Of a stretch of DNA of 64,000 bases, positions 4,551-61,461 are shown in pieces (positions within the stretch are counted from its first letter, which is position 1; every line of letters begins with the position of its first letter). The position numbers and the translations under genes were made by a program. The DNA comes from a phage. A model generated the notes under the pieces. That model did no database searches. It was not told the origin of the DNA and saw only the letters and a list, made by a program, of their open reading frames with translations. The stretch is taken from sequence record PZ386967.1; one strand, given 5' to 3'.

Positions 4551-4578
4551 TTGAATTACTTTACTTCTTCAATAACTC
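4551..4578 (+). promoter_or_regulatory. T4-type early promoter (-35 TTTACT, 16-bp spacer, -10 TATAAT)
   Basis: Matches the repeated cassette; T4 early promoters have a GTTTAC-type -35. Conserved leader and start context follow. Confidence 0.55.
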
Positions 4579-4635
4579 ACGTATAATTCTAAACATAAGC
4601 AGTACGACACCAACTTGAAACGAAGGAACTATATC

Positions 4636-4992
4636 ATGACCAAGACCGAAATTAACGCTATCCTGAAAGAAATCGGCCTCTGCAACCTGAAACGCCGCGT
4701 CAATCCTTACCAGCCCGCAAAGCCAGTACGCGACAGCCAGGGAAAGATGATAAAAGGGATCTACTGTGCAGATGTTGGCCCAATGACTGTGACCAGTCCA
4801 CACATTGACAGATTTAACGCTATTGTTGAGGAGTTTTGTGGTAAGGTTCTGGGTGAACTAGCTAATGATTTATGCTCCCCAGATACCAAAGTTGTAGCTT
4901 TCGGGAGCCACCTCGTCACATTCCACCTCACCAGCTTCCGTGCCCACGGTGATTATCATGTGTATTATGCTCAGGTTAGCATTCGCAAATAG
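4636..4992 (+). CDS. Hypothetical early protein (119 aa)
   Basis: ATG inside the conserved GGAACTATATCATG start context; the track's 4615 start is an upstream TTG. Confidence 0.5.
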   Translation: MTKTEINAILKEIGLCNLKRRVNPYQPAKPVRDSQGKMIKGIYCADVGPMTVTSPHIDRFNAIVEEFCGKVLGELANDLCSPDTKVVAFGSHLVTFHLTSFRAHGDYHVYYAQVSIRK

Positions 4993-4998
4993 CAGTTT

Positions 4999-5025
4999 AC
5001 CCCGCTGAGGCGGGGTTTAGTTTTC
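4999..5025. terminator. Terminator hairpin between convergent genes
   Basis: ACCCCGC-TGAG-GCGGGGT followed by T-rich tract; lies between the + gene ending 4992 and the - gene ending 5017. Confidence 0.6.
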
Positions 5026-6801
5026 CAGTTCATACCGGATAAGACCACACCCCCAGATACGCCCCAACCCGGCTTCCACCGACAGCATATCCTCTGTTTT
5101 GCCTTCTATATCGTATCCAAGTTTAAGGAATTTCTCTTTCCTGAAATTGAATTTGTGTATACGTAAGCTATAGTCTGGTGTCACATATTTGTAATCAGGG
5201 GGAAGGATTTCCTTTTCAACAAATCCGTTATTCAGGTAAACATTTTTCAGACGACTGACAACACAACGATCACCAAAAGAATATACTGTCTCACCCCGAT
5301 GTCGAGCGATATAATATTTCAGCAAGCGTGAGAATGCGCCATGGCAATTGTTAGAAGCAAATCTCACCAATTCAATACCATGCACTCGTTTGGTAAACAA
5401 CATCACCGCCTGGATATTCCCAGTTTTGTCTACAAGGTGTATATAATCTGTCGCCACCACACCACCTTGTATATGGAATCGGTCGAGAAAGTCCTTGGAC
5501 GTCCTATAGGAGCCTTCCAAAATGGTATGTTGGCGAGCGTATGACAATGGTTTCCCTATCCCCAATTTTGCTTTTAGGAGTGATTTAACCACTTCCTGTT
5601 TGTCACGCCACTCATCTTCCCAGATATGGATTAATTGAATACCCTGGGATTCACAGTGCATAGTCTTTTCAAGATGGTAGTCTTTGTATCGATGTTTCTC
5701 CGAATGCCAATACAACCCATTAAATTCTATTGCCAACTTATGTTCTGGGCAGTATATGTCTATCTGGCGTGTGGTCGCCCTCCCGTCGAACATTTTACCT
5801 CTGAGGACGGAGAAATTACCAGATTCATAAACGACACCCAATGAATCCAGGTATGAACATATTTCTATTTCTGGCTGTGTTTGGCTTTGGCTGCTGGGGT
5901 ATGTGAAAGAGTTCCTATATTCTTCAGAAGAGAAATAGTGAGGTACGCCGTATTTTTCTTTTGAAATGATCCTGGTATTGGCCTGGCTTCTATCCCATAT
6001 AGCCTTTACCTTCAACGGATAATCAACCCCATATTTTAAGACGCATGTTTTCTTTCTCTTTTCTATAATGGAATTGAGGAACATTGGATGATCCACACCA
6101 TAGATCTTCCTCCAAGTCTCAATCACCCTTTCCCTCACTTCTGGCATTTTCATGACGTGTGATACGCCATAGCGTTCCATGACAGAAGCAGCCACTCTGT
6201 CCTTTATAACATCAGACTTCATAGGGTGGTCGACCCCATATTTCTTAAGGGCAGTTTCCCGTGACTTTTGTTTTACTTCTTCCAGTTGGAATATGTTGGC
6301 TACGCCATATTTCTCTGTTATGGCGTTTTCTAGGTTGGCCCGTTCTGAGCCTCCCACCTTCATTGATTCTCGTTGGCATTCTTCGGAACAAAACTTTTTG
6401 TATCTGGGCGGTTGGGCTTCCATTTCTAAGCCGACGTCAGCACCGCAAGTGGCACACTGCGACTTCGGAATATCGTACAGCCAAGCAGTTATCGCTTGTG
6501 GTTCTTCTAATAGGTCGTTGTGTGACACCACGTATCCAACAACATCAACCCCAGTATGGGCCGTGAGTAGGGGATGAGAGATAAGTTTGTAGTTCAACGA
6601 ACCATCTTTCTTCCTGAGTTTACTATCAACCCAAGAGCGGCATTCGGTTTCGGTCGTCGGGATGTCATCCAACAAACCCGGATTGCGTTTCATCGTTCCC
6701 AGCATGAATGATTTGCATTCGTCACTACAATACAACGCAGCCTTCCTGGTTGGGGTGAACGGTTTGTGGCAGCATAAACAATTTTTATCGGGGAATGGCA
6801 T
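5017..6801 (-). CDS. Free-standing homing-endonuclease-like protein: N-terminal zinc ribbon, five KYGV repeats, C-terminal PD-(D/E)XK-like nuclease domain
   Basis: CCHKPF...YCSDEC and CATCG...FCSEEC cysteine pairs; repeated ~28-aa units (EKYGVANIF, KKYGVDHPM, ERYGVSHVM, KIYGVDHPM, LKYGVDYPL, EKYGVPHYF); C-terminal IDIYCPEHKLAIEFNGLYWH...IWEDEW resembles Vsr/DUF559-type nucleases. Antisense insertion between gp18 and gp19. Likely ATG at 6801; the track starts at GTG 6816. Confidence 0.6.
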   Translation of the reverse strand: MPFPDKNCLCCHKPFTPTRKAALYCSDECKSFMLGTMKRNPGLLDDIPTTETECRSWVDSKLRKKDGSLNYKLISHPLLTAHTGVDVVGYVVSHNDLLEEPQAITAWLYDIPKSQCATCGADVGLEMEAQPPRYKKFCSEECQRESMKVGGSERANLENAITEKYGVANIFQLEEVKQKSRETALKKYGVDHPMKSDVIKDRVAASVMERYGVSHVMKMPEVRERVIETWRKIYGVDHPMFLNSIIEKRKKTCVLKYGVDYPLKVKAIWDRSQANTRIISKEKYGVPHYFSSEEYRNSFTYPSSQSQTQPEIEICSYLDSLGVVYESGNFSVLRGKMFDGRATTRQIDIYCPEHKLAIEFNGLYWHSEKHRYKDYHLEKTMHCESQGIQLIHIWEDEWRDKQEVVKSLLKAKLGIGKPLSYARQHTILEGSYRTSKDFLDRFHIQGGVVATDYIHLVDKTGNIQAVMLFTKRVHGIELVRFASNNCHGAFSRLLKYYIARHRGETVYSFGDRCVVSRLKNVYLNNGFVEKEILPPDYKYVTPDYSLRIHKFNFRKEKFLKLGYDIEGKTEDMLSVEAGLGRIWGCGLIRYELEN

Positions 6802-6882
6802 AATAAATATCCTCACTTTGGAGTATTTTAACCCCCATTTATTTCAAAACTAAATATTTACACTATTCAGAGGAGAACGACC

Positions 6883-12693: not shown

Positions 12694-12720
12694 TCGAATA
12701 GTTGTCCTTAACCCTGACAA

Positions 12721-12748
12721 ACCCCGCTTCGGCGGGGTTTTTCATTTT
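12721..12748 (+). terminator. Rho-independent terminator after gp23
   Basis: ACCCCGC-TTCG-GCGGGGT followed by TTTTTCATTTT. Confidence 0.75.
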
Positions 12749-12794
12749 GGGGATTCGTTATATGATGTGCCAAACTTAACCGGAGATAACGTGT

Positions 12795-12995
12795 ATGAGC
12801 CTGAAAGAAGATTCTGTAAACACCACAGTCGCCAACTCCACTTTCCGTGAGTGGCACGACGTATTGTGCAAAGTCGCGAAAAGCCAGGGCGGTTCAGCCG
12901 CCGACGCCGACGCCTGGCGTGATGATTACGAAGCAGGCAAGACCCCTCGCCAGTCTTGGGAAGATGAATGGGGTTGGGAAGAACAAGAAGGATAA
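12795..12995 (+). CDS. Hypothetical small acidic protein (66 aa)
   Basis: ORF with RBS GGAGA 8 nt upstream. Confidence 0.4.
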   Translation: MSLKEDSVNTTVANSTFREWHDVLCKVAKSQGGSAADADAWRDDYEAGKTPRQSWEDEWGWEEQEG

Positions 12996-13025
12996 CAGTT
13001 TTCAATAACGGGGCGAGAGGTATTA

Positions 13026-13280
13026 TTGCCCCGTCTACTATCCGAGGGTTGTGCCATGTACCTGAAAAAGACTGTGAAGAAGCCGAAAGGCGAAGTGATC
13101 GAAGTGTGCCTTATTGAGGCTTATGTTGACTCCTGGAACAATGAGCAGCGCTACTTCATGGTCAACACATTGGTGTATGTGCCAGCCTCTCACCTGAACC
13201 GTGATTTCATCACAACCGAGAACATCGTCCGCTGGGAGATTGCAACGCAGTCCGATATCGACAAACACATCATTCTTTGA
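13026..13280 (+). CDS. Hypothetical protein (84 aa)
   Basis: ORF in the early-gene array; start uncertain. Confidence 0.35.
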   Translation: MPRLLSEGCAMYLKKTVKKPKGEVIEVCLIEAYVDSWNNEQRYFMVNTLVYVPASHLNRDFITTENIVRWEIATQSDIDKHIIL

Positions 13281-13297
13281 AAGGAAGGAACTATATC

Positions 13298-13741
13298 ATG
13301 TCAAAAGAGAAATACATTTTTATCAGTCCAGCCACGAAGGAGTTCTTCATCTCTGACGTGAAAGACCGTGTTGAGAAGTTCCGCTACATGCGCAGCTATG
13401 GTCTGGCGTCTGGTGAGATCGATTACCAGTCCCTGGATAATGATCGCCAGGATCTGATTGATGACGGCTGGCGTTTGGTCCCATCCCCTCAGTATATCCA
13501 TATCAAGCTGTACTACATGAAGGACAGCGGGAAGTATTATTCTGAAGGTGAACTCGTCCTCAATCGTGGAGAGGCTGAAGCTGAACCTGCTAAGTCCTGG
13601 ATGGACACTATGGATAAAATCCGCTATCTTCTCGACTCAGGCAATTTGCCCGGTTTGGTTAAAGGTGCCCGGTACGAGGTCTTCGTGACCGGAGAAGGGC
13701 ATCCAGGTGGTTATCCACAACTGTTCCGCATTAACAACTGA
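13298..13741 (+). CDS. Hypothetical protein (147 aa)
   Basis: ATG in conserved GGAACTATATCATG context. Confidence 0.5.
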   Translation: MSKEKYIFISPATKEFFISDVKDRVEKFRYMRSYGLASGEIDYQSLDNDRQDLIDDGWRLVPSPQYIHIKLYYMKDSGKYYSEGELVLNRGEAEAEPAKSWMDTMDKIRYLLDSGNLPGLVKGARYEVFVTGEGHPGGYPQLFRINN

Positions 13742-13749
13742 GGTCAAAC

Positions 13750-13986
13750 ATGATTATCAAAAAGATCGGCGCAAGTCCTCTCACTGGTACTATATTCCAG
13801 GGCAGGTTGAACACCAAAACCAGCATGTGGGTTGGTGAGAAGACCGACGTGACAGATGACTGCGTGGCAGCTGTAGCTGAACACTTGCGACACATCAAGA
13901 AAGACTATTGCTTCCCAACGACGGATGGTAAGTTTCTGGTGCTGAGCGCCGAGGTTCACGACACCCTTCCCGACCGCTTCAAATAA
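13750..13986 (+). CDS. Hypothetical protein (78 aa)
   Basis: ORF immediately after the preceding gene with RBS-like GAGG. Confidence 0.4.
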   Translation: MIIKKIGASPLTGTIFQGRLNTKTSMWVGEKTDVTDDCVAAVAEHLRHIKKDYCFPTTDGKFLVLSAEVHDTLPDRFK

Positions 13987-14006
13987 ATTTTAAATTTATT
14001 CAATAT

Positions 14007-14040
14007 ACGGGGTTTAATTCTTCAATAAACCCCGTATACT
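14007..14040 (+). promoter_or_regulatory. Hairpin plus T4-type early promoter (-35 TTTAAT, -10 TATACT)
   Basis: 10-bp perfect stem ACGGGGTTTA/TAAACCCCGT encloses the TTCTTCAATAA box; -10 TATACT at 14035-14040; conserved leader follows. Confidence 0.5.
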
Positions 14041-14089
14041 TCATTCCATAAGCAGCACAACATTGACTCTGAAATGAAGGAAATATATC

Positions 14090-14419
14090 ATGACTTTTAA
14101 AGGCTTTGTAGCATTCGACGCAACCAAAACCAACGTGCTGAGCAACCCGCAGCTGGAAACCATCTCTGAAATGCGCCAGTGGGTGATGGGGATCACTGGC
14201 CATCAAACCCGAAAGGATCTTGAAGCGGAGTTCTATATCGAACCTGCTGAAGTCTTCTTCAATCGCCCTGAAGATGAACCGTTCATCCGTCAAGACTTGG
14301 ATGACAATGATATCACTCTCGCGATCTTCTCTGAAGCAAAAGCGGCTATGATCGTGGACGGCCTGTGTGATGAGTCCTTCACATACGATGAATACTGCGA
14401 TCAGTGTCAGGATCTGTGA
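14090..14419 (+). CDS. Hypothetical acidic protein (109 aa)
   Basis: ATG in conserved start context after the early promoter cassette. Confidence 0.5.
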   Translation: MTFKGFVAFDATKTNVLSNPQLETISEMRQWVMGITGHQTRKDLEAEFYIEPAEVFFNRPEDEPFIRQDLDDNDITLAIFSEAKAAMIVDGLCDESFTYDEYCDQCQDL

Positions 14420-21634: not shown

Positions 21635-21673
21635 CTATAATGTGTGGGCGGGGCGTTCCCCGCCTATTTGAAA
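21635..21673 (+). promoter_or_regulatory. Promoter -10 (TATAAT) followed by 5'-leader stem-loop
   Basis: TATAAT at 21635-21640, then GGCGGGG-CGTT-CCCCGCC hairpin and CTATTTGAAATG, the same hairpin-leader arrangement seen at 33273 and 33832. Confidence 0.4.
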
Positions 21674-21696
21674 TGATTCTTCTACACGAGGCTGAA

Positions 21697-23142: not shown

Positions 23143-23607
23143 ATGGCGCGCAATACGCTAGACATATTGAACATTTCAGCCGTCAACGATGAGGCCAGCA
23201 TCGTTGATTGTATGGTTGAAGTTCAATTGAACCAAGATCGGCCAGGAATATTCCTGGGGATCAAGGAAACACTGAGCCGGATTGGGGTAAACACGCGCCA
23301 AGAGCCGAATACTCTGTATCAGACTTGCCATATTCTTCATAAGTGTGGTAAGTATTATATCGTCCACTTTAAGCATCTATTCATGCTGGACGGGCATTAC
23401 AACGGATTTAACCGCGAAGATGTCCTGAGGATGAACCGCATCATCAAGCTGCTGGAGCAGTGGAACATGGTGAAGGTCATTCATCCCGAGCAGGTCACCG
23501 AAGCCGCCGATATGTCACGCATTAAAGTGGTTAAACACGATCAGGTTCCTGAATGGAAGCTGGTCCCAAAATACATTATCCGGCCTACGAAGGCCAAGAG
23601 CGAATAA
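23143..23607 (+). CDS. regA: Translational repressor RegA-like
   Basis: KETLSRIGV...LYQTCHILHKCGKYYIVHFKHLFMLDG and EWKLVPKYI match T4 RegA; about 23 extra N-terminal residues, alternative start 23212. Confidence 0.75.
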   Translation: MARNTLDILNISAVNDEASIVDCMVEVQLNQDRPGIFLGIKETLSRIGVNTRQEPNTLYQTCHILHKCGKYYIVHFKHLFMLDGHYNGFNREDVLRMNRIIKLLEQWNMVKVIHPEQVTEAADMSRIKVVKHDQVPEWKLVPKYIIRPTKAKSE

Positions 23608-28397: not shown

Positions 28398-28772
28398 ATG
28401 AAACCTGTTATATGCGATTACTGTGGCCTCCCAGCCGAATTCGTCGGTGGTGATGTTCTCTACCCTCATCACCCTGACCTCCGCAATCTGAAGTTCTGGG
28501 TGTGCACTCCATGTGATGCCCGTGTCGGTTGCCATGCCCATGGCGACGGCAGACAACCTTTGGGAAGGATGGCGAATGCCGCTCTCCGTGCTGCTAAGCA
28601 AAAAGCCCATAGATCGTTTGACCCATTATGGAAAAGCGGAGAGAGGAGCAGGAGCGACGCTTACAGTTGGCTGGCGCATAAGCTGGGGATTAAGAAGCGC
28701 GATTGCCATATCGGCTTGTTCGATATCGACATGTGCCGTAAAGTAGTGGAGGTCTGTAAACAAATATCATAG
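28398..28772 (+). CDS. Zinc-ribbon protein (DUF3268-like)
   Basis: CDYCG...CTPCDARVGCH cysteine pattern near N-terminus. Confidence 0.4.
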   Translation: MKPVICDYCGLPAEFVGGDVLYPHHPDLRNLKFWVCTPCDARVGCHAHGDGRQPLGRMANAALRAAKQKAHRSFDPLWKSGERSRSDAYSWLAHKLGIKKRDCHIGLFDIDMCRKVVEVCKQIS

Positions 28773-28780
28773 GAGAACAC

Positions 28781-29653
28781 ATGACAACTCGCACTGGCAT
28801 CAAACTCACTCCTGAAGTCCTGAAGTCACATATCGCTGAGGTGATTTACGAAGACCGCGAAGTCGGCGGTCACCGGGCTATCACTTGTCATTTCAAGATG
28901 GATAACGGCTTCGTCGTTCACGGCACCAAGCCCAGCACATCCATAGACCCGGCCAACTTCGATGAAGCCCTGGGCAAAGAGATTTCCTACAATAACACCT
29001 TCGACCAGCTGTGGCAGCTGGAGGCGTACCGGGCGCTTGTTGAACAAGATCTGTTGGCCAAAGCCACGGAAACGGCAGAGATCCGGATCGATCAATACGC
29101 TGTTGAACGTAGCGCCCTCTGTCCGGCCTATCACCTCGGCTTCAATGTGATGATTCAGGAAGTGATGTTCAGAGCGGAAAATGGCGAGCGCTTCTTGGCG
29201 TCTTTCATTTGTGGGCCGGATGACATGGAACTTGTTGTTGAATCTCACAACGCCAAATCTCGTAAGGCTGTTAGTGATTTCCTGCGCGCCAACTCCAAAC
29301 TCGATCTCACTTATTCGCCATTGGTTCTGCGCATCGCCAAGATTTGTCATGAAGCCAACCGCGCATACTGCAAGTCTATTGGTGACGACTCTCAACTGCC
29401 TTGGGAACAATCTCCGGCCTGGCAGCGTGAGAGCGCTTGCAAAGGTGTTATCTTCCATCTCACTGGTGATCGTAAGCCCAGCGAATCGCATGAGAGATGG
29501 ATGGCGGAGAAGGAGTCTGAGGGATGGGTATATGGCCCAGTCAAAGACCCTCAGACCAAGCAACACCCTTGCATAGTTCCGTATGGAGAACTCCCGGTAC
29601 AACAACGCTCCAAAGATTATATTTTCAAATCCATTGTAGACTCCTTTAAATAA
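28781..29653 (+). CDS. Hypothetical protein with Gp49-like N-terminal domain and C-terminal RyR-like domain
   Basis: N-terminal AITCHFKMDNGFVVHGTKPSTSIDPANFDEALGKEISYNNTFDQLWQLEAYRA and C-terminal ICHEANRAYC...PWEQSPAWQRESACKGV pattern recalled as phage Gp49-like and RyR domains; from memory only. Confidence 0.4.
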   Translation: MTTRTGIKLTPEVLKSHIAEVIYEDREVGGHRAITCHFKMDNGFVVHGTKPSTSIDPANFDEALGKEISYNNTFDQLWQLEAYRALVEQDLLAKATETAEIRIDQYAVERSALCPAYHLGFNVMIQEVMFRAENGERFLASFICGPDDMELVVESHNAKSRKAVSDFLRANSKLDLTYSPLVLRIAKICHEANRAYCKSIGDDSQLPWEQSPAWQRESACKGVIFHLTGDRKPSESHERWMAEKESEGWVYGPVKDPQTKQHPCIVPYGELPVQQRSKDYIFKSIVDSFK

Positions 29654-29687
29654 GCTCTGAATAATATTTCAACCTGTCAATAATATA

Positions 29688-29720
29688 ATGCCCGGTTATA
29701 TTCAATCGGGCATTTTTATT
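29688..29720 (+). terminator. Terminator hairpin within promoter-like region
   Basis: AATGCCCG-(12 nt)-CGGGCATT followed by TTTTATT; flanked by TGTCAATAATATAATG and TGTCGTAATATAATAG boxes. Confidence 0.5.
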
Positions 29721-29804
29721 ATATTAATTGGCATCAATACCGCCTGTCGTAATATAATAGTCCCATGTTAAAATAGTTAGGAAATATAACTCACGAGAGC
29801 CTGA

Positions 29805-29981
29805 TGACCGACAACAAATTAAAACGTGTCGGACTTGATTGTCTTGACAATTCATTCCGCCCCAGTGATGTTCTGGTCGCCCAAATGGAAAACAACCGGG
29901 ATTTCATTGAAACTATGCTGGAGAACGCCGACGCGAACTCCAAACACTCCAAAGCCCAAAAAGGTCAAAACGATGATTGAA
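29805..29981 (+). CDS. Small protein (58 aa), coupled to the downstream vWA gene
   Basis: ATG 29805 to TGA 29979-29981, overlapping the vWA ATG (ATGATTGA); replaces the Pro/Thr-rich N-terminal extension in track ORF 29826. Confidence 0.35.
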
Positions 29982-32544: not shown

Positions 32545-32609
32545 AGTCCCCAACAAACGTTGGGGATTTTTACTTTTAGGGGTTTACTTCTATAATGTAA
32601 ATGCGTATT
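32545..32609 (+). promoter_or_regulatory. Terminator plus T4-type early promoter cassette (copy A)
   Basis: Hairpin TCCCCAAC-AAAC-GTTGGGGA with T-run, then -35 TTTACT (32581-32586), 17 bp, -10 TATTAT (32604-32609). Confidence 0.55.
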
Positions 32610-32660
32610 ATTGAATTCATAGAGCGGGGCGTTCCTGTTCATTGAAAGAAGGTATACATT

Positions 32661-32885
32661 ATGTCTGCTATATCATGTGTTGTTGATCTCACCCCATTTT
32701 GCCTGAACAATATTGCTAACCCTAAATTGGTCTTGTTTAAGGATCCCTCTAATTTCTGCTGGCTGGCAAGTTGTGATACCAACAACGGGCGTCGTGCTGT
32801 TTGGGAGTTTCCCGCAACTGATGAAGGCAGAATTTCTGCTATAAGAAAATTAGAACTAGAAAATTCAAGCCGAGAAATTAAATAG
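32661..32885 (+). CDS. Hypothetical Cys-containing small protein (74 aa)
   Basis: ORF flanked by near-identical cassette copies; RBS AAGAAGG. Confidence 0.4.
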   Translation: MSAISCVVDLTPFCLNNIANPKLVLFKDPSNFCWLASCDTNNGRRAVWEFPATDEGRISAIRKLELENSSREIK

Positions 32886-32902
32886 GCATAACTTTTATTA
32901 AA

Positions 32903-33019: not shown

Positions 33020-33259
33020 ATGAAGAACAAAATGGTCGAAACTTCAGTAGAGATTGATCGCAATTGGGGATTGCTCCGCGCTAAAGGGTTCCGTCGTGTG
33101 TATGCGACCAAAGAAGTCTACGCACAGCGCCGTGACGTTATCATCAGCAAGAAAGGCAAAGAGTGGGTTGCTGAAGAAGTTGATGTCGAGACAGGCATCG
33201 TAGGAAAGGTAAAGGCCAAGGCCGTGATCCTCTTCGCTCTTCTGAAGCACATCAGTTAA
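33020..33259 (+). CDS. Hypothetical protein (79 aa)
   Basis: ORF after cassette copy B with RBS AAAGG. Confidence 0.4.
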   Translation: MKNKMVETSVEIDRNWGLLRAKGFRRVYATKEVYAQRRDVIISKKGKEWVAEEVDVETGIVGKVKAKAVILFALLKHIS

Positions 33260-33318
33260 TTCTATAACTTTGGGCGGGGTATGATTACCCCGTCTATTTG
33301 AAATGCAGGAACTATACC

Positions 33319-33825
33319 ATGACCGATCAACAAATTCAAGATTTATTTTACCTCGTCCATGATAAGTCCCACATCATGCGCCCCGGTACTGTTTCCCCTG
33401 CCGTCCGTGATCTGGTGCAAGAATTGCGCGAACCACAGACGACCACACTTTATCGCGGGTTGCCTAAAGAGGACGTTGCGCGTTTAGAGATGATGTTTGA
33501 ACGAGGCGACATGTTCCAGACATGGGATTCTTGCCTTAGCTTCAGTGAACTGAAGCATGTGGCCAAAAAATTTTCTAAATCGTACGGAACCCAAGCTGTT
33601 GCCCGCATTTGTTACAAACATCGAAACAGACTCCCGGAGGGGCTTAATGTCTATGGTTCTCTAGAAAAATTTGTGAACAAAGGCGATGAATCAGAAATGG
33701 ATATGCTGGACTTGGCGTCCATGGAGAAAGAATGGATATTCTGCCAGCCTCGCGTCATACCAGTTTCAAGAAAAATGGCAACAGACGGCACGATGGTTTT
33801 TACCGTATCACTTGTTACCCTATAA
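33319..33825 (+). CDS. Hypothetical protein (168 aa)
   Basis: ATG in conserved GGAACTATACCATG context; flanked by identical 31-bp hairpin-leader repeats. Confidence 0.5.
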   Translation: MTDQQIQDLFYLVHDKSHIMRPGTVSPAVRDLVQELREPQTTTLYRGLPKEDVARLEMMFERGDMFQTWDSCLSFSELKHVAKKFSKSYGTQAVARICYKHRNRLPEGLNVYGSLEKFVNKGDESEMDMLDLASMEKEWIFCQPRVIPVSRKMATDGTMVFTVSLVTL

Positions 33826-33877
33826 ACCCACGGCGGGGTATGATTACCCCGTCTATTTGAAACCAAGAGACTATATC

Positions 33878-34255
33878 ATGAAAAAGTTAATCCTCGCTGT
33901 TGCCCTGCTGGGCGCTTCCTTTGCTGCTGTTTCCGCCCCTCCTGTCATCACCGGAGTGTCTACCAACGGTGTTTATGCTTTCAAGGCGTATGGCCAAGAC
34001 CTCGTTCTGTATAAGAACGGGAAGATGATTGAGCGCTGCGTATCAGACGACGTGAATCGTGGGATCGACAATCAGGGTAGCCCATACGTCCTGGACATCT
34101 ATTCCTGCTCCAACGGGACGAAGTCCTTTGGCGTCAAGACCTTTGGCAACGTCGCCGACGGTGGCTGGGGCTTCATGTTCGAAACCCGCAACCACCACCC
34201 GGTCAAGACCATGCAAGAAGAGTTCTTGATCTCTGTCGGGGGTGGAACATTATGA
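33878..34255 (+). CDS. Secreted protein with signal peptide (125 aa)
   Basis: MKKLILAVALLGASFAAVSA|PP signal peptide; conserved start context. Confidence 0.5.
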   Translation: MKKLILAVALLGASFAAVSAPPVITGVSTNGVYAFKAYGQDLVLYKNGKMIERCVSDDVNRGIDNQGSPYVLDIYSCSNGTKSFGVKTFGNVADGGWGFMFETRNHHPVKTMQEEFLISVGGGTL

Positions 34256-37179: not shown

Positions 37180-37235
37180 TCAATAACCTCGGGCGGCTTA
37201 TCATAAAGCTGCCCTTTCATTTGAGAGACTATATC

Positions 37236-37898
37236 ATGGAAAAACTTTATTCTATTATCGTCGGTCCTGATCCTGACGGATTATTCTTCGCCTCGTTGTC
37301 TTATATTGCCCACGCCCGTATCGGTAGCTATTACGCATATTGCACACGTGGCCACGACGGTTCCAATATCCTCCATTATAGCCGCCTGAACGATTTCCTG
37401 GCACTTCAACCAGAAGATGTTGTGCTGGCGCGTCGCGTGTTCATCGACTTCAACGCGATGCACAACAACGAAATCGACGCTCGCTACCATGCCATGCGTT
37501 CTATGGACGGGGGAGATTGCATTTATCGTATCGACCATTTTAGTGAGTTTACCGAATGTATTGATTGGTTTATCTCTGATAAAGTGATGGGTGAAAGAAT
37601 CGTCACAACTCCGTGGGCACATGCGGAACAACTTCGTGTGTCTACCGATGCGTACAAAGAAGTCGACAATCTGTGCAACAAGTTCCGCATCTCGGTGACC
37701 TGTAATCAAGACCTGGGCGAAGAGATACAATGGACAGCTGAGTCTCCTCATTTCAGTGGCCTGGTGATGACGGCCGAAACCCGTTCCCGTGCTGTTGTCC
37801 AGTTAGTACTCTGGGCGTTCTACCAGCGCACCCCGTTCTCGTACATGGGGCAGAAAGAGATTGATGAACTCCTGAAGTCTCACGCGGTGGAGGTGTAA
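37236..37898 (+). CDS. Hypothetical protein (220 aa)
   Basis: ATG in conserved GAGACTATATCATG context after a hairpin. Confidence 0.5.
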   Translation: MEKLYSIIVGPDPDGLFFASLSYIAHARIGSYYAYCTRGHDGSNILHYSRLNDFLALQPEDVVLARRVFIDFNAMHNNEIDARYHAMRSMDGGDCIYRIDHFSEFTECIDWFISDKVMGERIVTTPWAHAEQLRVSTDAYKEVDNLCNKFRISVTCNQDLGEEIQWTAESPHFSGLVMTAETRSRAVVQLVLWAFYQRTPFSYMGQKEIDELLKSHAVEV

Positions 37899-47692: not shown

Positions 47693-48330
47693 TGAACATC
47701 ACTCCATCTCAGGCCGGATATGAACATATCTTGGTCTTCATTGCTCTACAGGGTGCGAAGGAAGGCATCATCGTATCCGAGTACTCAGGCACGGTTCGCC
47801 TTGCCGATTATGTCGCACCAGAGGCATTTATCAAGAAGTGTATTGACGCATGGTGTCTCTATGCCCTCAGCACATACCCTGCTCCTCCTGAGGGTGAGCT
47901 GTTGTTTACTGTACCGACTCCGGCTGTTGGGGATACGGATGCCATCTTTGCCGATATGCTGGCGAAGGGGTATCTGGTGTATGACATCACCCACGATGTC
48001 TACTCTTTTACTTCGCTGAACACCGTGTTTGGATTCACCATCACATCTGAAGCCAACATCCCTGACTGGGGTATCTTGGCATGGGGTGTTGACGGCCTGG
48101 GTGCAACCTACGCATCGTCTGACGTCGGTGCAGTTCTGATTGATGAGGGTGTCACCATGGAGCAGTACCTTGCCCAGTTCCCTCAGCACAATATCACAGG
48201 CAGCGACATCATTTTGGTCCAGCCTGGCGCTATCGCTCTCCCCCGTTTGGTGGATGGATGGAATCCTCGGCTGAAGGGCATCATCGCAGGTATTCGATCC
48301 CACATTCCGATTGTGAATCCGACGCCGTAA
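47692..48330 (+). CDS. Hypothetical protein (212 aa)
   Basis: Start overlaps the upstream stop (TAATG). Confidence 0.45.
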   Translation: MNITPSQAGYEHILVFIALQGAKEGIIVSEYSGTVRLADYVAPEAFIKKCIDAWCLYALSTYPAPPEGELLFTVPTPAVGDTDAIFADMLAKGYLVYDITHDVYSFTSLNTVFGFTITSEANIPDWGILAWGVDGLGATYASSDVGAVLIDEGVTMEQYLAQFPQHNITGSDIILVQPGAIALPRLVDGWNPRLKGIIAGIRSHIPIVNPTP

Positions 48331-48343
48331 AATAATTCAATAA

Positions 48344-48388
48344 AAGGGGCTTTTGCCCCTTTACTTCTTCAATATCCTTCCCTATACT
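48344..48388 (+). promoter_or_regulatory. Terminator plus T4-type early promoter cassette
   Basis: Hairpin AAGGGGC-TTTT-GCCCCTT, then -35 TTTACT (48360-48365), 17 bp, -10 TATACT (48383-48388); conserved leader. Confidence 0.55.
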
Positions 48389-48436
48389 TCATTCCATAAG
48401 CAACACAACACCAACTTGAAAAGCAGGAACTACACC

Positions 48437-48712
48437 ATGAAAATTATCCTCGACGCATATATCCGCCACGGTCAGAAATACCTGATGGCCAAGGTTTACG
48501 ACGGCGAAGAATTGATCCACGCCCAGACCGCCCCAGCTGCCCAGCTGCGAGAAATCATGTCACGCGACTTCCCTGGTGTTGAAATGGTAGAGCCTACCAA
48601 CCAGGCCGAAGTAGACAAAGAGTGGGAGCGCGAATGGAGTCCAGCGGCTATCGCTCGGGCTGAAAAGAATTGGTCTAACCGCGAAAACGCAAACCGCCCT
48701 TTCCGCCGTTAA
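48437..48712 (+). CDS. Hypothetical protein (91 aa)
   Basis: ATG in conserved GGAACTACACCATG context. Confidence 0.45.
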   Translation: MKIILDAYIRHGQKYLMAKVYDGEELIHAQTAPAAQLREIMSRDFPGVEMVEPTNQAEVDKEWEREWSPAAIARAEKNWSNRENANRPFRR

Positions 48713-48734
48713 TTTGAACCGAAGGAACTATATC

Positions 48735-49070
48735 ATGACACAACTCAAGAACTTCACCGCCGATGACATGTTTGCCTTCCAGGGTGCTGAGCACTTTGCT
48801 GACGGCTCCGTACCTCGCATCTACTACTTCTCCGACGAAGAAATGGAAGATTTCTTCGCCCTGATGGAAAAGGACTACGAACCAGACGACTTCGTTTATA
48901 TCATCCATCACGCCGAAGGACTGACATTGGGCTGGACGGCCAACAATGAACCAGAAGAAGTAAACTTCCCTGAAGGTATCATGTCAGAGCGCGTCGAATA
49001 TCTACTGGAAGCCCTGGACCCCCACACCCTCCCGCTCTGGGCGATGTCTGTAGCCCAAGTTCAAAAATAA
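48735..49070 (+). CDS. Hypothetical acidic protein (111 aa)
   Basis: ATG in conserved GGAACTATATCATG context. Confidence 0.45.
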   Translation: MTQLKNFTADDMFAFQGAEHFADGSVPRIYYFSDEEMEDFFALMEKDYEPDDFVYIIHHAEGLTLGWTANNEPEEVNFPEGIMSERVEYLLEALDPHTLPLWAMSVAQVQK

Positions 49071-49145: not shown

Positions 49146-52130
49146 ATGTCAAAGCCAAGTTTCCTCCAGTTCATGCAGGAAAGAGATCAGTTGGACGAAG
49201 CGTTCAACTCCGCTCCGTATGAGCTGACCATGGGTAAGAAGAACGCAGGCGATGTGTTCTTCACCTTCGTCGACGAAGATGATAAGGAATACCGCATTCA
49301 GTTCTATACTCCTCAGGGACTGGGCAAGAGCGTTCGTCAGGTTTTCATCGGCCAGAAGCGCGGCTCCGTCTATCCTGACGCCATCGCTCGCTTCAAGAAC
49401 CCAATGCGCGTTATTGCTTCCATGATCGAAGCGACCAAACAATTCATGGCGACTCCTCTGGGCAAAACTATCGATGGCTATGCTGTCAACTTCTCGAAGA
49501 AAGCGCTGGATCGCGGTATGACCCTGATTCCTAAGATCATCCGCCAGTCCGGTCTGAAGCAGAAACTGAATGTCATGGACCTGACCTACGCGCCTGTCCC
49601 TGACCGTGGTTATGTGTGGCTAGTTCGTAAGGGCAAAGATCCGGCTCAGGTATTCGACGGTCCGAAGATGCAGGGTATCACCTGGGATGATCCAGACAAG
49701 GTCGGTGACGTTCCGGTTCAGAACAATACTCCGGATGTGGGTGTGTCATCTTCTGTTGATAATTCCAACGGATGGAAATTAACTTCAAACGGGGATCAGC
49801 CCATGTTGATATGGGCTGGTAAGGAGAGAGGCCGCACGAATACGGCAAATATCGCTCCCCACTACAATGAGCCGGGCGTGTATGTTGGCGCATACATGAA
49901 TGAGAAACCTGTGCGTGGGCAAAGTGCTGATTTCATTGCTCGTCAGTTGAAATTACCACAAGTCCCTATCAGTATCCTGAATGATTTCACCACGGCGTCC
50001 ACAAAATTTTGGAAAGGTTCTCAACAGAAATCTGCGCCTGTTGTGCCGGCAGGTTCGGACAGAAATAACCCAGCCAACATTATCGGTTCTGGAACTGCTG
50101 TTATTGATGCCAAACGGCTTGGTGCTCAGGAAGTAAACGTGGAACGATTCAAAAACGGCGTTCGCATGCGTTCTCGAAACGGTGACGTCGACATCAGTAT
50201 TTCTGACCCAGACTTTTCAAATGCAGCAAGTGCGGCTGATGCTGCCACAGCCTCTGTTGTGGTCAAGAACGGGCGTTACGAAGGTGCCATCAATTCAAAG
50301 CGCAAGATTGCCCGCACCTCGAACGAGCAGGGTACTGAATGGGATATCATCGGTGTCAACGGGGAAACCCTTGTCTCTATCAAGTTGAACAAAGTGTCTA
50401 AATCCACATCAGATTCGACCGAGGGTGCAACCAGTGTTGATCAATTACGTGACAGCGGTTTCATCGCTCGTGTTCTGGGTATCATTGATACCAACGTTGG
50501 GCTGGACACTTCTATTCTTCCTGGTGAAAACATCCGTCGCGTGGGCGCTGGTCGTTACACGACGGCAGGCGGGTTGGTTATCGTTGTCAACTTCACAAAC
50601 GTCCTCGCTGGTTTCGTTCAATACTCAGTTTTCAGCGAAATTGCTGAAGAGGAGAACGTGGCCAAAGGTAGCGCCCGTGACGTCGCCAAGGCGGTAATTG
50701 CGTCCATCTTTGAGGTTGCTAAGACCCAGTACACTGGCAAATGGGAAATTAGCGCAGTGCCAACAAGCGCTCCATATCCTATCAAAGCCATTCGCCGTTC
50801 TCGGGGCTGGGGTTATGTGGAAACCGCAAACTGGACTCTGACAGTGTCCGACGCTGTCCTGAATCGTGTGAAGCCAGGGAACACTGCTCTACTGGAACTC
50901 ATCAAAGAACCTCCGCGTGGCAAGCACCCGCTGGAAATCATCCCAGAGAAGGGCGACAAGACCCTGATGCTGAAAGATCGTATCACCGGGGCCATCTATG
51001 GTTCTATCGACCTGAATGCCCAAGGCGCTGATCTGGTCAACTCTGGAACCCTGAAGATACCAAGCAACGCCATGGTGTTTGGTGAGACTGTCAACGGTAT
51101 GTCCATTCGGTGGGATGTCAATTTCCCCGAAACGGGAAAATACGCCGGTACTTCTATGATAACCAACGTGACCTATTACTACGACAAAGGTAAAGTTGCA
51201 TTCACCCCAATTGTCTCTCAGAAAGGGCGTACCCTGAACAATCCGAAGACATATGAACTTCCTTTAAACAAAGATATGGTCCAGAGTGTGATTGATGAGA
51301 TTTCATCAAAAATGGTATATCTTTCCAGAAACCTCCAACAGTTGAAAAGTCAGTCATACAACCCAAACCAGGTGTTCTTGAACGATATAACCATCACGGA
51401 TAAAGGTGAAGTGATTTGGAATGATTACAACTTGTCTGACGGCAAAGTTACACAAATTATGCTGTCCATGATAAGCGCAGAAAATAAACGCCTGGAGAAA
51501 GTAGCAAACACGCCGGATATCAATATCACATTGCCCAAGAAACAAGCTGAAGTGGTAGAATTTATAAACCGGATGATCGATGTCGATCTCACCCCTTATG
51601 TGAGAACCCCCAAAAAACGTGATGTGGTATTATTTGACTCTTCTGAATTGTCGATAAACCAACTCAACAACATAGAACGCCTGGGAAGAGAAACAGGAAA
51701 ATGGTCTCTTCAGCCAAACGGTGGTATGGGTCATGCACTACTTCTGAAAAGCACGTCGCACAATCCGAAGGACGACCTTGCGGCATACGCCGACTCCATT
51801 CGCGACAACGCACCAAAAGGTCGCGACCTGGATTGGCAGATCTATGCAAGCCGTGATGGTCAGACTCTGAACGTGGACTGGGATATCACCTTCCGCCGCA
51901 ACACAACTGAAGGGGCATATCGCGAGTTCAAAGCTCAGATTGACCGCGCCAACCAGTACCTGCAGACACTGTACCGGGATGCGAAGTCCAAGGGTTACAA
52001 CCCGACTGAACCAAACCTGATGACTCTGGATAGCGCCCAGCAGTCTGACCAGTGGGCACGAGACTACGGGGAAGGCGCATACAGCGAGTACGAGCAGTCC
52101 CTGGGTGGCAACATGCAGATTAAGATCTGA
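49146..52130 (+). CDS. Large (994 aa) protein with internal-protein-like N-terminal capsid targeting sequence; candidate packaged/injected protein
   Basis: N-terminus MSKPSFLQFMQERDQLDE|AF resembles the T4 targeting sequence with L-x-E cleavage motif; RBS AGGAGA; no catalytic family recognised. Confidence 0.55.
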   Translation: MSKPSFLQFMQERDQLDEAFNSAPYELTMGKKNAGDVFFTFVDEDDKEYRIQFYTPQGLGKSVRQVFIGQKRGSVYPDAIARFKNPMRVIASMIEATKQFMATPLGKTIDGYAVNFSKKALDRGMTLIPKIIRQSGLKQKLNVMDLTYAPVPDRGYVWLVRKGKDPAQVFDGPKMQGITWDDPDKVGDVPVQNNTPDVGVSSSVDNSNGWKLTSNGDQPMLIWAGKERGRTNTANIAPHYNEPGVYVGAYMNEKPVRGQSADFIARQLKLPQVPISILNDFTTASTKFWKGSQQKSAPVVPAGSDRNNPANIIGSGTAVIDAKRLGAQEVNVERFKNGVRMRSRNGDVDISISDPDFSNAASAADAATASVVVKNGRYEGAINSKRKIARTSNEQGTEWDIIGVNGETLVSIKLNKVSKSTSDSTEGATSVDQLRDSGFIARVLGIIDTNVGLDTSILPGENIRRVGAGRYTTAGGLVIVVNFTNVLAGFVQYSVFSEIAEEENVAKGSARDVAKAVIASIFEVAKTQYTGKWEISAVPTSAPYPIKAIRRSRGWGYVETANWTLTVSDAVLNRVKPGNTALLELIKEPPRGKHPLEIIPEKGDKTLMLKDRITGAIYGSIDLNAQGADLVNSGTLKIPSNAMVFGETVNGMSIRWDVNFPETGKYAGTSMITNVTYYYDKGKVAFTPIVSQKGRTLNNPKTYELPLNKDMVQSVIDEISSKMVYLSRNLQQLKSQSYNPNQVFLNDITITDKGEVIWNDYNLSDGKVTQIMLSMISAENKRLEKVANTPDINITLPKKQAEVVEFINRMIDVDLTPYVRTPKKRDVVLFDSSELSINQLNNIERLGRETGKWSLQPNGGMGHALLLKSTSHNPKDDLAAYADSIRDNAPKGRDLDWQIYASRDGQTLNVDWDITFRRNTTEGAYREFKAQIDRANQYLQTLYRDAKSKGYNPTEPNLMTLDSAQQSDQWARDYGEGAYSEYEQSLGGNMQIKI

Positions 52131-54468: not shown

Positions 54469-54563
54469 AGGCCTCATTCGACGAGGCCTTTTAAAATACT
54501 TCAAAAATAATTTTAAAAAATTATTGAAAAAGACTTTACTCTTCAATAATGATGCACTATTAT
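54469..54563 (+). promoter_or_regulatory. Terminator followed by AT-rich region and T4-type early promoter
   Basis: Hairpin AGGCCTC-ATTCGAC-GAGGCCT with T-run; -35 TTTACT 54535-54540, 17 bp, -10 TATTAT 54558-54563. Confidence 0.55.
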
Positions 54564-54636
54564 AGTTCACATAGGGCGGTAACACACCGCCGAATGAAAA
54601 GTGAAATGAACCAACTACATTATGAGGAATTACATC

Positions 54637-55125
54637 ATGGCTACCACCAAAACTCTGATCACCAACGGCACCATCTCTTTCGAACTGAACACCGAAGTTG
54701 CTAAAGTTGAAATGTTCCGCATCGCTCAGGCAGCTGGCTTCACTGGTGGCAAAACTTCCTTCATGAACCTGCTGAACGGTAAAGTGAAAGCGACTAACGG
54801 CTTCACCCTGGTAGAGCAGGTTGTGGTTGATAAAGCTGTGGTTGCTAAGACTGCCGACAAAGTTGGTATGCTGAAAAACCTGGGTCACGACATCCACATT
54901 GTCGAAGCAAGCACCGAAACTTACGGCACCATCGTAGTCGGTAAAGGTCGCATCCAGCTGAACCCGCTGAACAACGGTTCCTTCTCTGTGATGGTCTTCC
55001 CTAAGAAGGGGTACGACAACACCGACATCGTGAAAGCTGTTGGCGGCGAAGCAAAAGCTCAGTACGTCAAAATGGGTAAACTGAGCGCCGACGCAGTTGA
55101 AGCTCTGGTGAACAAACTGGCTTAA
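54637..55125 (+). CDS. Hypothetical protein (162 aa), likely early gene
   Basis: Early promoter cassette and RBS GAGGA upstream; Ala/Val/Lys/Thr-rich composition. Confidence 0.5.
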   Translation: MATTKTLITNGTISFELNTEVAKVEMFRIAQAAGFTGGKTSFMNLLNGKVKATNGFTLVEQVVVDKAVVAKTADKVGMLKNLGHDIHIVEASTETYGTIVVGKGRIQLNPLNNGSFSVMVFPKKGYDNTDIVKAVGGEAKAQYVKMGKLSADAVEALVNKLA

Positions 55126-60881: not shown

Positions 60882-60890
60882 AGGTGAGAA

Positions 60891-61115
60891 ATGATTACTA
60901 TCTATTCCAAACAAGGTTGCGCTCAGTGTGTAACAGCCGAAAATCTGTGCAAAATGAAAGGGCTGGAACACAAGATCCTCAAGCTGGACAAAGATTACCG
61001 GCTGGAAGAACTTCAGCAGTTGACGGGTAAGCCGCGCGTGTCGATGCCTGTAATCGTCCTCGCTGACCAGACCGTGACCGACGTTAATGGACTCGCCGCC
61101 AGCCTTAAACGCTGA
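60891..61115 (+). CDS. nrdC: NrdC-like glutaredoxin/thioredoxin
   Basis: IYSKQGCAQCVTAENL redox CxxC motif; immediately downstream of nrdB. Confidence 0.55.
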   Translation: MITIYSKQGCAQCVTAENLCKMKGLEHKILKLDKDYRLEELQQLTGKPRVSMPVIVLADQTVTDVNGLAASLKR

Positions 61116-61123
61116 CAAGCCAA

Positions 61124-61170
61124 AGCCCCTCAATGAGGGGCTTTACTTCTATAATCCCTGCGCTTATACT
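61124..61170 (+). promoter_or_regulatory. Terminator plus T4-type early promoter cassette
   Basis: Hairpin GCCCCTCA-A-TGAGGGGC, then -35 TTTACT (61142-61147), 17 bp, -10 TATACT (61165-61170). Confidence 0.55.
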
Positions 61171-61221
61171 TCCCAGTAATTCATTGGCATTCGCCACAAA
61201 TTGAACAGCAGGAACTATATC

Positions 61222-61461
61222 ATGACCGACTCTGAAGTCTACGACACCTCAATGAAATACCACGCCATGACAGCCAAACGCGGCTGTGCTGCTAACAAGG
61301 CATATTGGATAGGTGAACTCAGAACCCTCCGCGCCGTGGTCAACCACGAAATCATTATGAATCACGACAACAACGGTCAAGGTAAAGACCGAGAAGAATT
61401 GAAGGTTGCTCGTGAACGTCTTCGCTTTGGTCTGACCAAAGCCCTTGAATATGTGAAATAA
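61222..61461 (+). CDS. Hypothetical protein (79 aa)
   Basis: ATG in conserved GGAACTATATCATG context. Confidence 0.45.
   Translation: MTDSEVYDTSMKYHAMTAKRGCAANKAYWIGELRTLRAVVNHEIIMNHDNNGQGKDREELKVARERLRFGLTKALEYVK

Follow-up and report, generated by a model that had tools for sequence, protein, structure and literature searches.

Repeated terminator, promoter and start-site modules flank small variable genes in an Ackermannviridae phage and may serve as homology for their exchange

A 64,000-nucleotide (nt) stretch of phage DNA (sequence record PZ386967.1; the whole stretch is called the window below) carries a dispersed family of intergenic cassettes that combine a hairpin, a predicted promoter, a leader and a translation-start region. 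The repeated parts of these cassettes coincide with the borders of small genes that are present in some related phages and absent or replaced in others. We consider it likely that the cassettes are regulatory units whose repeated modules double as substrates of the homologous recombination that moves these genes.

By similarity to its relatives the window belongs to a phage of the Ackermannviridae, subfamily Aglimvirinae. It is ~98% identical over 8 kb to the Escherichia phages vB_EcoM-ZQ1, PC3, PH4 and A221 and ~88% identical to the Dickeya LIMEstone1 group of the same family and subfamily; the Salmonella phage vB_CECAV_050 matches a 553-nt test segment of the window with 99.3%. Nearly all window genes lie on the plus strand, and their order by homology runs from the large terminase and tail sheath to the head genes, replication genes, regA, gp55, gp46/47, nrdAB and finally the baseplate genes. 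Seven relatives were compared, the close phages PC3, ZQ1, A221 and LHE287 and the more distant LIMEstone1, Mutine (Kuttervirus) and Menlow (Taipeivirus, a Klebsiella phage). Gene calls were made with a plus-strand caller after masking of known minus-strand genes; some large genes were missed or truncated, and the calls were used solely for the start-site survey and the definition of intergenic sequence.

The promoter pattern TTTAMT-N{16,17}-TATWMT occurs eight times in the window (4560, 14013, 32569 and 32583, which overlap, 32940, 48360, 54535 and 61142). All eight matches are intergenic and on the plus strand with no others in the window, whereas dinucleotide-preserving shuffles gave 0.04 matches on average and never more than one. 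The seven sites listed in a first-pass annotation of this DNA (4551, 14013, 32581, 32940, 48360, 54535 and 61142) could thus all be recovered; the -35 element TTTACT proposed for them is shared with the exception of 14013, which has TTTAAT. The hexamers are close to the sigma-70 consensus and the regions upstream are A/T-rich. A generic TTGACA/TATAAT scan, which also picks up the family promoters, was not clearly above shuffles in two of three regions (17 vs 15.4; 27 vs 19.7; 22 vs 12.6), so that the specific family pattern represents the non-random part. Degenerate relatives of the promoter were observed at 12999, 25797, 35204 and 38437.

Hairpin scans and direct reading revealed a GC-rich hairpin 0–50 nt upstream of the promoter, or overlapping it, at every site (4506-4529, 14006-14036, 32547-32566, 32900-32925, 48343-48362, 54469-54493 and 61125-61141). 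The hairpin, first described as usual, is therefore present at all seven sites; at 14013 it encloses the -35 element and the spacer. An nhmmer profile made from the four best sites gave 99–109 bits at 4504-4640, 13957-14094, 48298-48440 and 61086-61226 (cassettes c1 to c4, in this order) and just 8–13 bits at the other three sites. The family is modular, with four full cassettes (sites 4551, 14013, 48360 and 61142) and three sites (32581, 32940 and 54535) that share hairpin and promoter only. In c3 and c4 the T-run of the terminator doubles as the -35 element. The seven promoter sites and the genes behind them are composed as follows.

4506-4640, plus strand: cassette c1, profile score 108 bits.
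4506-4529, plus strand: c1 terminator CCCCGCTTCGGCGGGG with T-run, followed by an AT-rich stretch with TTATTGAA.
4560-4587, plus strand: predicted c1 promoter, -35 TTTACT (4560-4565), 16-nt spacer with TTCAATAA, -10 TATAAT (4582-4587).
4615-4640, plus strand: c1 start-site module, preceded by an unstructured CA-rich leader.
4636-5016, plus strand: c1 gene of 118 amino acids (aa), PHROG 13016 (unknown function), including a second CCCCGC..GCGGGG terminator at 4999-5016.
13957-14094, plus strand: cassette c2, 109 bits, with AT-rich upstream part containing ATTCAATA.
14006-14040, plus strand: hairpin 14006-14036 around -35 TTTAAT (14013-14018) and spacer of the predicted c2 promoter; -10 TATACT at 14035-14040.
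Up to 14094, plus strand: unstructured c2 leader and start-site module, ending with ATGAC at 14094.
14090-14419, plus strand: gene of 109 aa directly behind c2, in a slot whose content varies among the relatives.
32547-32616, plus strand: hairpin CCCCAACAAACGTTGGGG and predicted promoter with overlapping -35/-10 pairs at 32569/32591 and 32583/32606; left copy of a 73-nt direct repeat.
32661-32885, plus strand: gene of 74 aa between two hairpin-promoter copies.
32900-33024, plus strand: right hairpin-promoter copy, hairpin 32900-32925, -35 at 32940-32945, -10 at 32963-32968; the leader has a 5' hairpin followed by the start site of gene 33020-33259.
48298-48441, plus strand: cassette c3, 107 bits, with ATTCAATAA; hairpin 48343-48362 abuts the -35 element.
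48360-48441, plus strand: predicted c3 promoter, -35 TTTACT (48360-48365) and -10 TATACT (48383-48388), unstructured leader, start-site module 48416-48441.
48437-48739, plus strand: c3 gene of 91 aa and second start-site copy 48714-48739, which serves gene 48735-49070.
54469-54641, plus strand: weaker member, 12.7 bits, hairpin 54469-54493 and AT-rich region with TTATTGAA.
54535-54641, plus strand: its predicted promoter, -35 TTTACT (54535-54540) and -10 TATTAT (54558-54563), leader with 5' hairpin, start site GGAATTACATCATG, gene 54637-55125.
61086-61226, plus strand: cassette c4, 99 bits; hairpin 61125-61141 abuts -35 TTTACT (61142-61147).
61165-61226, plus strand: -10 TATACT of the predicted c4 promoter (61165-61170), distinct leader with small 5' hairpin, start-site module 61201-61226.
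61222-61477, plus strand: c4 gene of 79 aa and perfect 16-nt repeat GGAACTATATCATGAC (61462-61477), which serves gene 61473-61934.

Cassette c1, the 118-aa gene and the second terminator form an insulated terminator-promoter-gene-terminator unit (4506-5016); similarly insulated are 32547-32925 and c3 through the terminator at 49074. The genes served by the family are small, of unknown function and without Pfam match, with the exception of gene 33319-33825 (168 aa). This gene matches PHROG 832 'RNA polymerase ADP-ribosylase' (E = 6e-15) and is on that account a candidate Mod/Alt-like ADP-ribosyltransferase.

The leaders of c1 to c3 are CA-rich and fold worse than their own shuffles (minimum free energy -2 to -4.8 kcal/mol, z +1.1 to +2.0; c1 -2 kcal/mol and z +1.2, c2 z +2.0), which fits open, ribosome-accessible leaders. 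On the same grounds a riboswitch or small-RNA reading of these three leaders was rejected. Those of c4, 32581, 32940 and 54535 show only a small 5' hairpin followed by UUGAA. A scan of the entire window against Rfam gave no match at the gathering threshold, so the conserved leader corresponds to no described RNA family.

The end of the leader, TTGAA..AGGAACTATATCATGAC, turned out to be a separate translation-start module with the extended form TTGAA-N-AGGAACTATATC-ATG-AC. The motif GGAACTATATCATG is exact at 4625 and 61211, has one mismatch at 14079 and two at 48426 and 54626, and is poor at 32581 and 32940. A conserved leader end common to all sites, as first proposed, thus holds for the former and only poorly for the last two. 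The module also occurs in promoterless form: copies of GGAACTATATCATG with at most two mismatches were found at 13287, 33308, 33867, 37225, 48724 and 61462, in front of the genes starting at 13298, 33319, 33878, 37236, 48735 and 61473, respectively. For TTGAA-N3-6-AGGAA-N6-8-ATG six matches were counted in the window at an expectation of 0.01. A terminator, CCCCGC-N4-GCGGGG, recurs as well (4510, 5000 and 12722) and represents the third module. The following modules lie apart from the promoters.

12719-12740, plus strand: terminator after the major capsid gene, 93% identical over 28 nt to the hairpin upstream of c1.
13277-13302, plus strand: promoterless start-site module TTGAAAGGAAGGAACTATATCATG, preceding gene 13298-13741.
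21643-21696, plus strand: hairpin and TATTTGAAA module preceding the gene at 21697; exact site of a 652-nt insertion in PC3.
33273-33322 and 33832-33881, plus strand: two hairpin and start-site copies, 88% identical, flanking gene 33319-33825.
37225-37240, plus strand: promoterless start-site module GAGACTATATCATG, preceding gene 37236-37898, with a hairpin upstream (37191-37214).

An AGGA-type Shine-Dalgarno sequence and ATC directly before the ATG are general traits of the start sites of this phage. A (T/C)TGAA(A) box ~8–12 nt upstream of the Shine-Dalgarno sequence (e.g. 4615, 10400, 13277, 14069, 25875, 33298, 48416, 52160 and 61201) was observed at the module genes and also in apparent late-gene leaders. 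The idea of an operator for RegA, a homolog of which is encoded at 23143-23607, was not supported: the start sites at 20948 (gene 45), 21697 (gene 44) and 23143 (regA) match the 16-nt motif at 6–9 positions, compared with 13–16 in the module genes. As a RegB target the module was uninformative, with AGGAA instead of GGAG.

The predicted promoters closely resemble those of the promoter-early stem-loop (PeSL) cassettes of T4-like phages (Arbiol et al. 2010, PMC2839356; Comeau et al. 2014, PMC4122927). An additional element is the octamer TTCAATAA, which occurs, with its complement, 12 times versus ~2 expected (4548-4575, 13998-14028, 48335-48375, 54521-54549, 32608 and 32968). The octamer is mostly paired around the -35 element: one copy precedes it by ~20–30 nt and may point either way, the other falls within the promoter spacer. 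Such pairs exist at c1, c2, c3 and 54535. Since sigma-70 can do without a conserved spacer, TTCAATAA may be bound by a protein of phage or host, or may belong to an UP element. The promoters might accordingly be of a middle-type class that depends on a phage factor, with the octamer as activator or repressor site, and the record of LIMEstone1 (HE600015) labels the homologs of c3 and 54535 'putative middle promoter' with adjacent terminator. The same record, which gives only a terminator at the c4 homolog, calls the homolog of c2 'putative early promoter' and that of 32940 'putative early promoter' with terminator, so these labels are based on patterns only. Since TTTACT, the 16–17 nt spacer and a TATAAT-like -10 correspond to the early PeSL consensus of T4/PST, and direct reading revealed no TGCTT-type box at -30, we regard a middle-type class as unlikely. 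It would concern timing only and is compatible with a role in recombination.

In HE600015 the homologs of four of the seven sites are thus annotated singly as early or middle promoters. For LIMEstone1 5 early, 5 middle and 33 late promoters and 31 terminators were reported (PMC3296691), for phiSboM-AG3 8 sigma-70 promoters and 40 terminators (PMC3121705). Neither of these two papers describes a repeated family or a conserved leader and start-site module, or connects the sites with the gain and loss of genes; a review of the Ackermannviridae from 2024 does not touch on promoters or transcription, and our literature search found no paper joining PeSL with Ackermannviridae or Viunalikevirus.

The family is not limited to the window. 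The complete 155.9-kb genome of PC3 contains the promoter pattern exactly seven times on one strand only, and six of the seven copies lie in the region homologous to the window. The seventh (143520-143620 of the PC3 record, beyond the window) has TTTATTGAATAAAG upstream, TTTACTTCTTCAATAACTGGCGTATACT and a CA-rich leader. In PC3 the pattern is absent from the strand with the large block of rIIB, topoisomerase and DNA polymerase, which means that this block must be transcribed from other promoters. Besides the seven promoter copies of PC3 there are, as counted in the window, about six start-site-only copies and the terminator family; variable genes are flanked by them, yet several sites lie between conserved core genes.

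The 136-nt c1 cassette was found in 287 phage records with essentially only Ackermannviridae-type names, at 3–4 places per record. All of c1 to c4 lie at orthologous positions in Mutine, which belongs to another subfamily; LIMEstone1 has c2 to c4, and Menlow has c2 in place plus c1 elsewhere. The 56-nt core of c2 is 100% identical in ZQ1, LIMEstone1 and Mutine, compared with an average identity of 77.8% over aligned DNA between the window and Mutine. Hairpin stems are kept while loops vary between phages. Orthologous positions, identity above the genome average and the conserved stems mark the cassettes as old and under strong purifying selection.

For a survey of insertions and deletions (indels) the 70-kb homologous regions of PC3, ZQ1, A221 and LHE287 (95–98% identity) were assembled and every alignment break was listed. 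At four single-gene indels of the window the gene is flanked by direct repeats of 16–73 nt that align in register, and the shorter genome keeps one hybrid copy. The 74-aa gene (indel 32617-32899; junction overlap of 73 nt comprising hairpin and promoter) is present in the window, ZQ1 and LHE287 and absent from PC3 and A221, which retain a single repeat copy. With a 50-nt overlap of hairpin and start site, the 168-aa gene (33323-33831) occurs not only in the window but also in ZQ1 and Mutine (95% amino-acid identity); it is missing in PC3, A221 and LHE287. The 91-aa gene (48441-48710; 28-nt overlap at the start site) is shared by the window, A221 and Mutine and lacking in PC3, ZQ1, LHE287 and LIMEstone1. 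Finally, the 79-aa gene (61227-61461; overlap of 16–24 nt at the perfect GGAACTATATCATGAC repeat) is absent from all four close relatives, where one hybrid start site is kept, and present in Mutine and many Kuttervirus genomes. A fifth event, at a 48–52 nt repeat of hairpin and Shine-Dalgarno sequence, became evident in the all-against-all comparison and distinguishes PC3 and A221 from ZQ1 and LHE287.

Among the five genomes (~95–98% identity), all five indels with a junction repeat of at least 16 nt are module-bounded; homing-endonuclease indels and one other show a junction repeat of only 10–11 nt or none. Modules repeated within the window make up 18% of the intergenic sequence and contain 11 of the 24 intergenic breakpoints (binomial P = 0.0015, a value that overstates independence, as breakpoint ends are paired).

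The same borders appear across the family. BLAST alignments of the c3 and c4 loci break off at the edges of the start-site copies, which correspond to query positions 143-144 and 413-415 for c3 and 139 and 376 for c4, and the gene is present, absent or replaced in all combinations. At the c4 locus of Shigella phage MK-13 a tandem pair of hairpin-promoter-leader cassettes encloses an extra 128-aa gene, mirroring the 32547/32900 pair of the window (32547-33024). Compared with the promoter itself, translation-start regions and terminator hairpins would more often be the site of crossover.

Behind the nearly invariant cassette c2 the first gene differs between phages. The window carries a 109-aa gene, ZQ1 and LIMEstone1 an unrelated one of 93 aa, Menlow an unrelated one of 99 aa and Mutine one of 154 aa that is related at the C-terminus only. 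In PC3, A221 and LHE287 there is no gene: promoter and leader are intact, the start site (14079-14086) is cut at GGAACTAT, and a ~40-nt remnant of the ZQ1-type first gene (codons ~16–29) follows. In these three phages c2 is, as read from the sequence, evidently an orphan promoter with a decayed first gene. As a separate observation, window positions 12795-14086 are 87.5–89.9% identical to ZQ1, A221 and LHE287, compared with 94–98% in the neighbouring blocks. This stretch, from the post-capsid terminator and endonuclease site to the c2 start, looks like a mosaic segment with the c2 start-site module as its right edge.

Exchange is also seen between cassettes. When they are split into upstream, core (-35 to leader) and start-site segments and compared with a pairwise aligner, the core of c1 in the window shows 96% identity with that of Mutine c3 against 76% with that of Mutine c1, and the core of c3 in the window shows 89% with that of Mutine c1 against 75% with that of Mutine c3. 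The upstream and start-site segments group by position. Cross-matching cores within outer segments that follow position point towards a patch exchanged between c1 and c3, which are 44 kb apart.

The c1 unit occurs in more than one place. It is flanked by two CCCCGC..GCGGGG terminators, which in Mutine are 26-nt perfect repeats with the capsid-gene terminator as a third copy. In Menlow a homolog of the c1 unit (55% amino-acid identity over all 118 residues), complete with a c1 cassette, follows the capsid gene directly and has such a terminator on either side; the gp18-gp19 gap of Menlow has no c1 unit, only a terminator and a GIY-YIG endonuclease gene. LIMEstone1 lacks the unit, and its gp18 site is empty with a single terminator. 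With in-register indel junctions, alignment breaks at start-site edges, core exchange and one unit at another locus, the proposal that the family supplies homology patches for shuffling small genes is well supported, and the comparison of flanking gene content it called for yielded single-gene indels bounded by modules and a differing first gene behind c2. The description as 'mobile' fits the flanked genes and the c1 unit, but not the cassettes in general. In the PC3 record, beyond the window, the CCCCGCTTCGGCGGGG terminator with ~30 nt of conserved downstream sequence was also observed after two successive tail-spike genes (2566 and 5399). Tail-spike genes are exchanged within the Ackermannviridae, so the terminator family may give homology there too.

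From the sequence we infer the following course of events. In each unit an intrinsic terminator or attenuator hairpin would close the upstream transcript. Downstream of it and of an UP-like stretch rich in A/T, a T4-early-type promoter for host sigma-70 (-35 TTTACT; -10 TATAAT, TATACT or TATTAT) would then act early in infection through a leader of 45–50 nt and the extended translation-start region, driving one to few small genes of unknown function, often ended by another terminator. Terminator, promoter with leader, and start region recur with near-identity over 16–73 nt, which would make them substrates of homologous recombination. The replication of T4-related phages is highly recombinogenic, and UvsX, UvsY, gp46/47 and RuvC-like genes are annotated in the relatives. 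A crossover between direct repeats would delete the gene between them and leave one hybrid copy, and the reverse event would insert it. Non-allelic crossovers could swap the first gene, convert one cassette core to another or move a terminator-flanked unit to another terminator copy.

Several points weigh against this explanation. The enrichment of breakpoints in modules is modest; when all 43 are drawn from intergenic sequence, P is 0.14, although we judge this null to be mis-specified, as about half of the breakpoints lie inside genes. Many indels are not module-bounded (homing-endonuclease genes, indels inside 49146-52130 and the genes at 4202, 38175 and 59483), and the direction of each event, insertion or deletion, is not readable from the data. 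Because ATC-ATG and AGGA are general, 16-nt junction repeats are partly expected at adjacent strong start sites. The cassettes are mostly position-stable across subfamilies, so that most of their similarity could stem from function alone. The promoter pattern is matched only ~7 times per genome, unlike the dense PeSL arrays reported in RB49 and nt-1. Further, our literature search found no transcriptome or transcript-mapping paper for Ackermannviridae.

If the sites were ordinary conserved regulatory signals only, selection on expression would keep them alike, genes would come and go at gene boundaries and the coincidence with indels would be incidental. Orthologous positions across subfamilies, conservation above the genome average, the commonness of AGGA..ATC-ATG and the P value under the harshest null are in accordance with this, but junctions in register within repeats of up to 73 nt with exactly one hybrid copy left are not. 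Neither does it account for the exchange of the c1 and c3 promoter cores within positional flanks, for extra genes flanked by tandem cassettes, or for the c1 unit, which sits between repeated terminators, is found at another copy of the terminator in Menlow and has an empty site with one terminator as its counterpart in LIMEstone1. We therefore consider regulatory signals without a role in exchange quite unlikely.

Homing endonucleases or other dedicated mobile elements could drive the gene mobility, with the cassettes as passengers co-converted during break repair. Polymorphic homing genes do lie next to two of the sites. In LHE287 the gene at 5017-6816 (599 aa, minus strand), whose neighbours are the c1 unit and the tail tube gene, is removed by a clean deletion with an 11-nt microhomology, and at 12750-12999 PC3, A221, ZQ1 and LHE287 have an endonuclease insertion of 1.5–2.1 kb after the capsid gene that the window does not have. 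The GIY-YIG gene between gp18 and gp19 of Menlow and the 14 homing-endonuclease genes reported for LIMEstone1 point in the same direction. Breaks near these two sites could stimulate events, yet the modules would still supply the homology, and such breaks would not explain the module-bounded junctions elsewhere. No such gene lies beside the indels at 32617, 33323, 48441 and 61227, and the endonucleases' own indels show just 10–11 nt of microhomology or none, which makes endonucleases as the driving force highly improbable. Least probable is an integron-like site-specific system, in which a dedicated recombinase would attach at the hairpins or at the start-site sequence. In its favour, insertions occur precisely and in one orientation, at c3 and c4 also promoter-proximal, and the hairpins are constant, but three module types and repeat lengths from 16 to 73 nt fit homology-dependent exchange, no integrase or recombinase is annotated for the region in the tables of the relatives, and general recombination genes of the phage are present.

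Compared feature by feature with the published description of PeSLs, the suggested resemblance to the early promoter/stem-loop cassettes of T4-type phages holds. Both are composite intergenic elements of ~100 bp with an AT-rich region, a sigma-70-type promoter and a Shine-Dalgarno sequence with ATG at the 3' end; the -35 TTTACT of the window fits the T4/PST PeSL consensus TTTACW-N17-TAYWAT, and a GGGG..CCCC stem-loop lies upstream of, abutting or within the promoter. Both flank small genes of unknown function that differ among close relatives, with deletion alleles that keep one hybrid copy. Crossovers between the -10 element and the ATG or in the stem-loop (PMC2839356) and tandem cassettes around single open reading frames (ORFs) are further common features. 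PeSLs were described in T4-like myoviruses, whereas the present family belongs to the Ackermannviridae, so that its elements are of the same kind in a different phage family and not members by descent. Instead of being densely packed in hyperplastic regions, the promoters occur in ~7 copies per genome at mostly conserved positions, the 45–50 nt leader is itself strongly conserved, and start-site module and terminator serve alone as crossover repeats at promoterless sites. For PeSLs mini-circles and promoter and terminator activity were shown by experiment; the promoters and terminators of the present family are predicted from sequence.

Other known systems agree in part. T4-type early promoters share the TTTAC-type -35, the 16–17 nt spacer, the TATAAT-like -10, the A/T-rich upstream region and the small genes of unknown function, but not TTCAATAA in the spacer and upstream, the low copy number or the restriction to one genome strand. 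Like lambdoid morons, the c1, c3 and 32581 units are insulated insertions of terminator, promoter, gene or genes and terminator, that of c1 between the late genes gp18 and gp19. Morons accrete without conserved flanking sequences (PMC2839356), whereas here the flanks are repeated modules that hold the junctions. As with integron cassettes, single promoterless ORFs in one orientation lie right behind a resident strong promoter at the c3 and c4 loci, where the 3' repeat of each ORF is predicted to restore expression of the displaced gene. In contrast to integrons, no integrase or attC-type site was found, and repeats of varying length and type point towards general homologous recombination.

This partial likeness allows a more tentative reading, which we consider possible at best: beyond an optimised ribosome-binding site, the start-site module may have been selected as a 'docking' sequence at which genes are captured by homology in an integron-like manner, with the four deeply conserved cassettes as fixed expression platforms whose first slot is continually refilled family-wide. 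ORFs ending in a module copy would then enter in frame immediately after the ATG(AC) with which the first gene downstream of a strong, insulated early promoter begins. The incoming ORF would take over promoter and leader and give the displaced gene a fresh start site, and the paired TTCAATAA and invariant leader would be control sites of the platform.

Small early genes hold much of the host-takeover and anti-defence repertoire of phages, and their fast turnover is only partly understood. That architecture and junctions of PeSL type appear in a second phage family suggests that repeated regulatory modules are a general route of homology-based exchange. The signatures are unusually clean here: the junctions are in register, two cassettes have swapped a core, and one unit occupies different terminator copies in different genera. 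Variable genes behind the cassettes, such as the candidate ADP-ribosyltransferase, are first candidates for host-specific functions. Ackermannviridae phages are under development for biocontrol and diagnostics, and the small set of deeply conserved promoter-leader platforms with natural insertion points could serve their engineering.

Further observations concern other parts of the window. CTAAATA or TAAATA occurs ~25–35 nt upstream of structural and other genes (6883, 7483, 10425, 18708, 52188, 52579, 55308 and 61940) and resembles the T4-type late promoter TATAAATA reported for Ackermannviridae. A replacement hotspot at 28556-29957 holds a 290-aa gene in the window and PC3, 329 nt in ZQ1, 864 nt in A221 and, in LHE287, 3.5 kb with nicotinamide phosphoribosyltransferase and ribose-phosphate pyrophosphokinase, as in Menlow. 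The 994-aa gene 49146-52130 shows internal indels or replacements among the close relatives (49715-50035, 50039-51051 and 51316-51772), and its homologs are annotated with 800–1124 aa.

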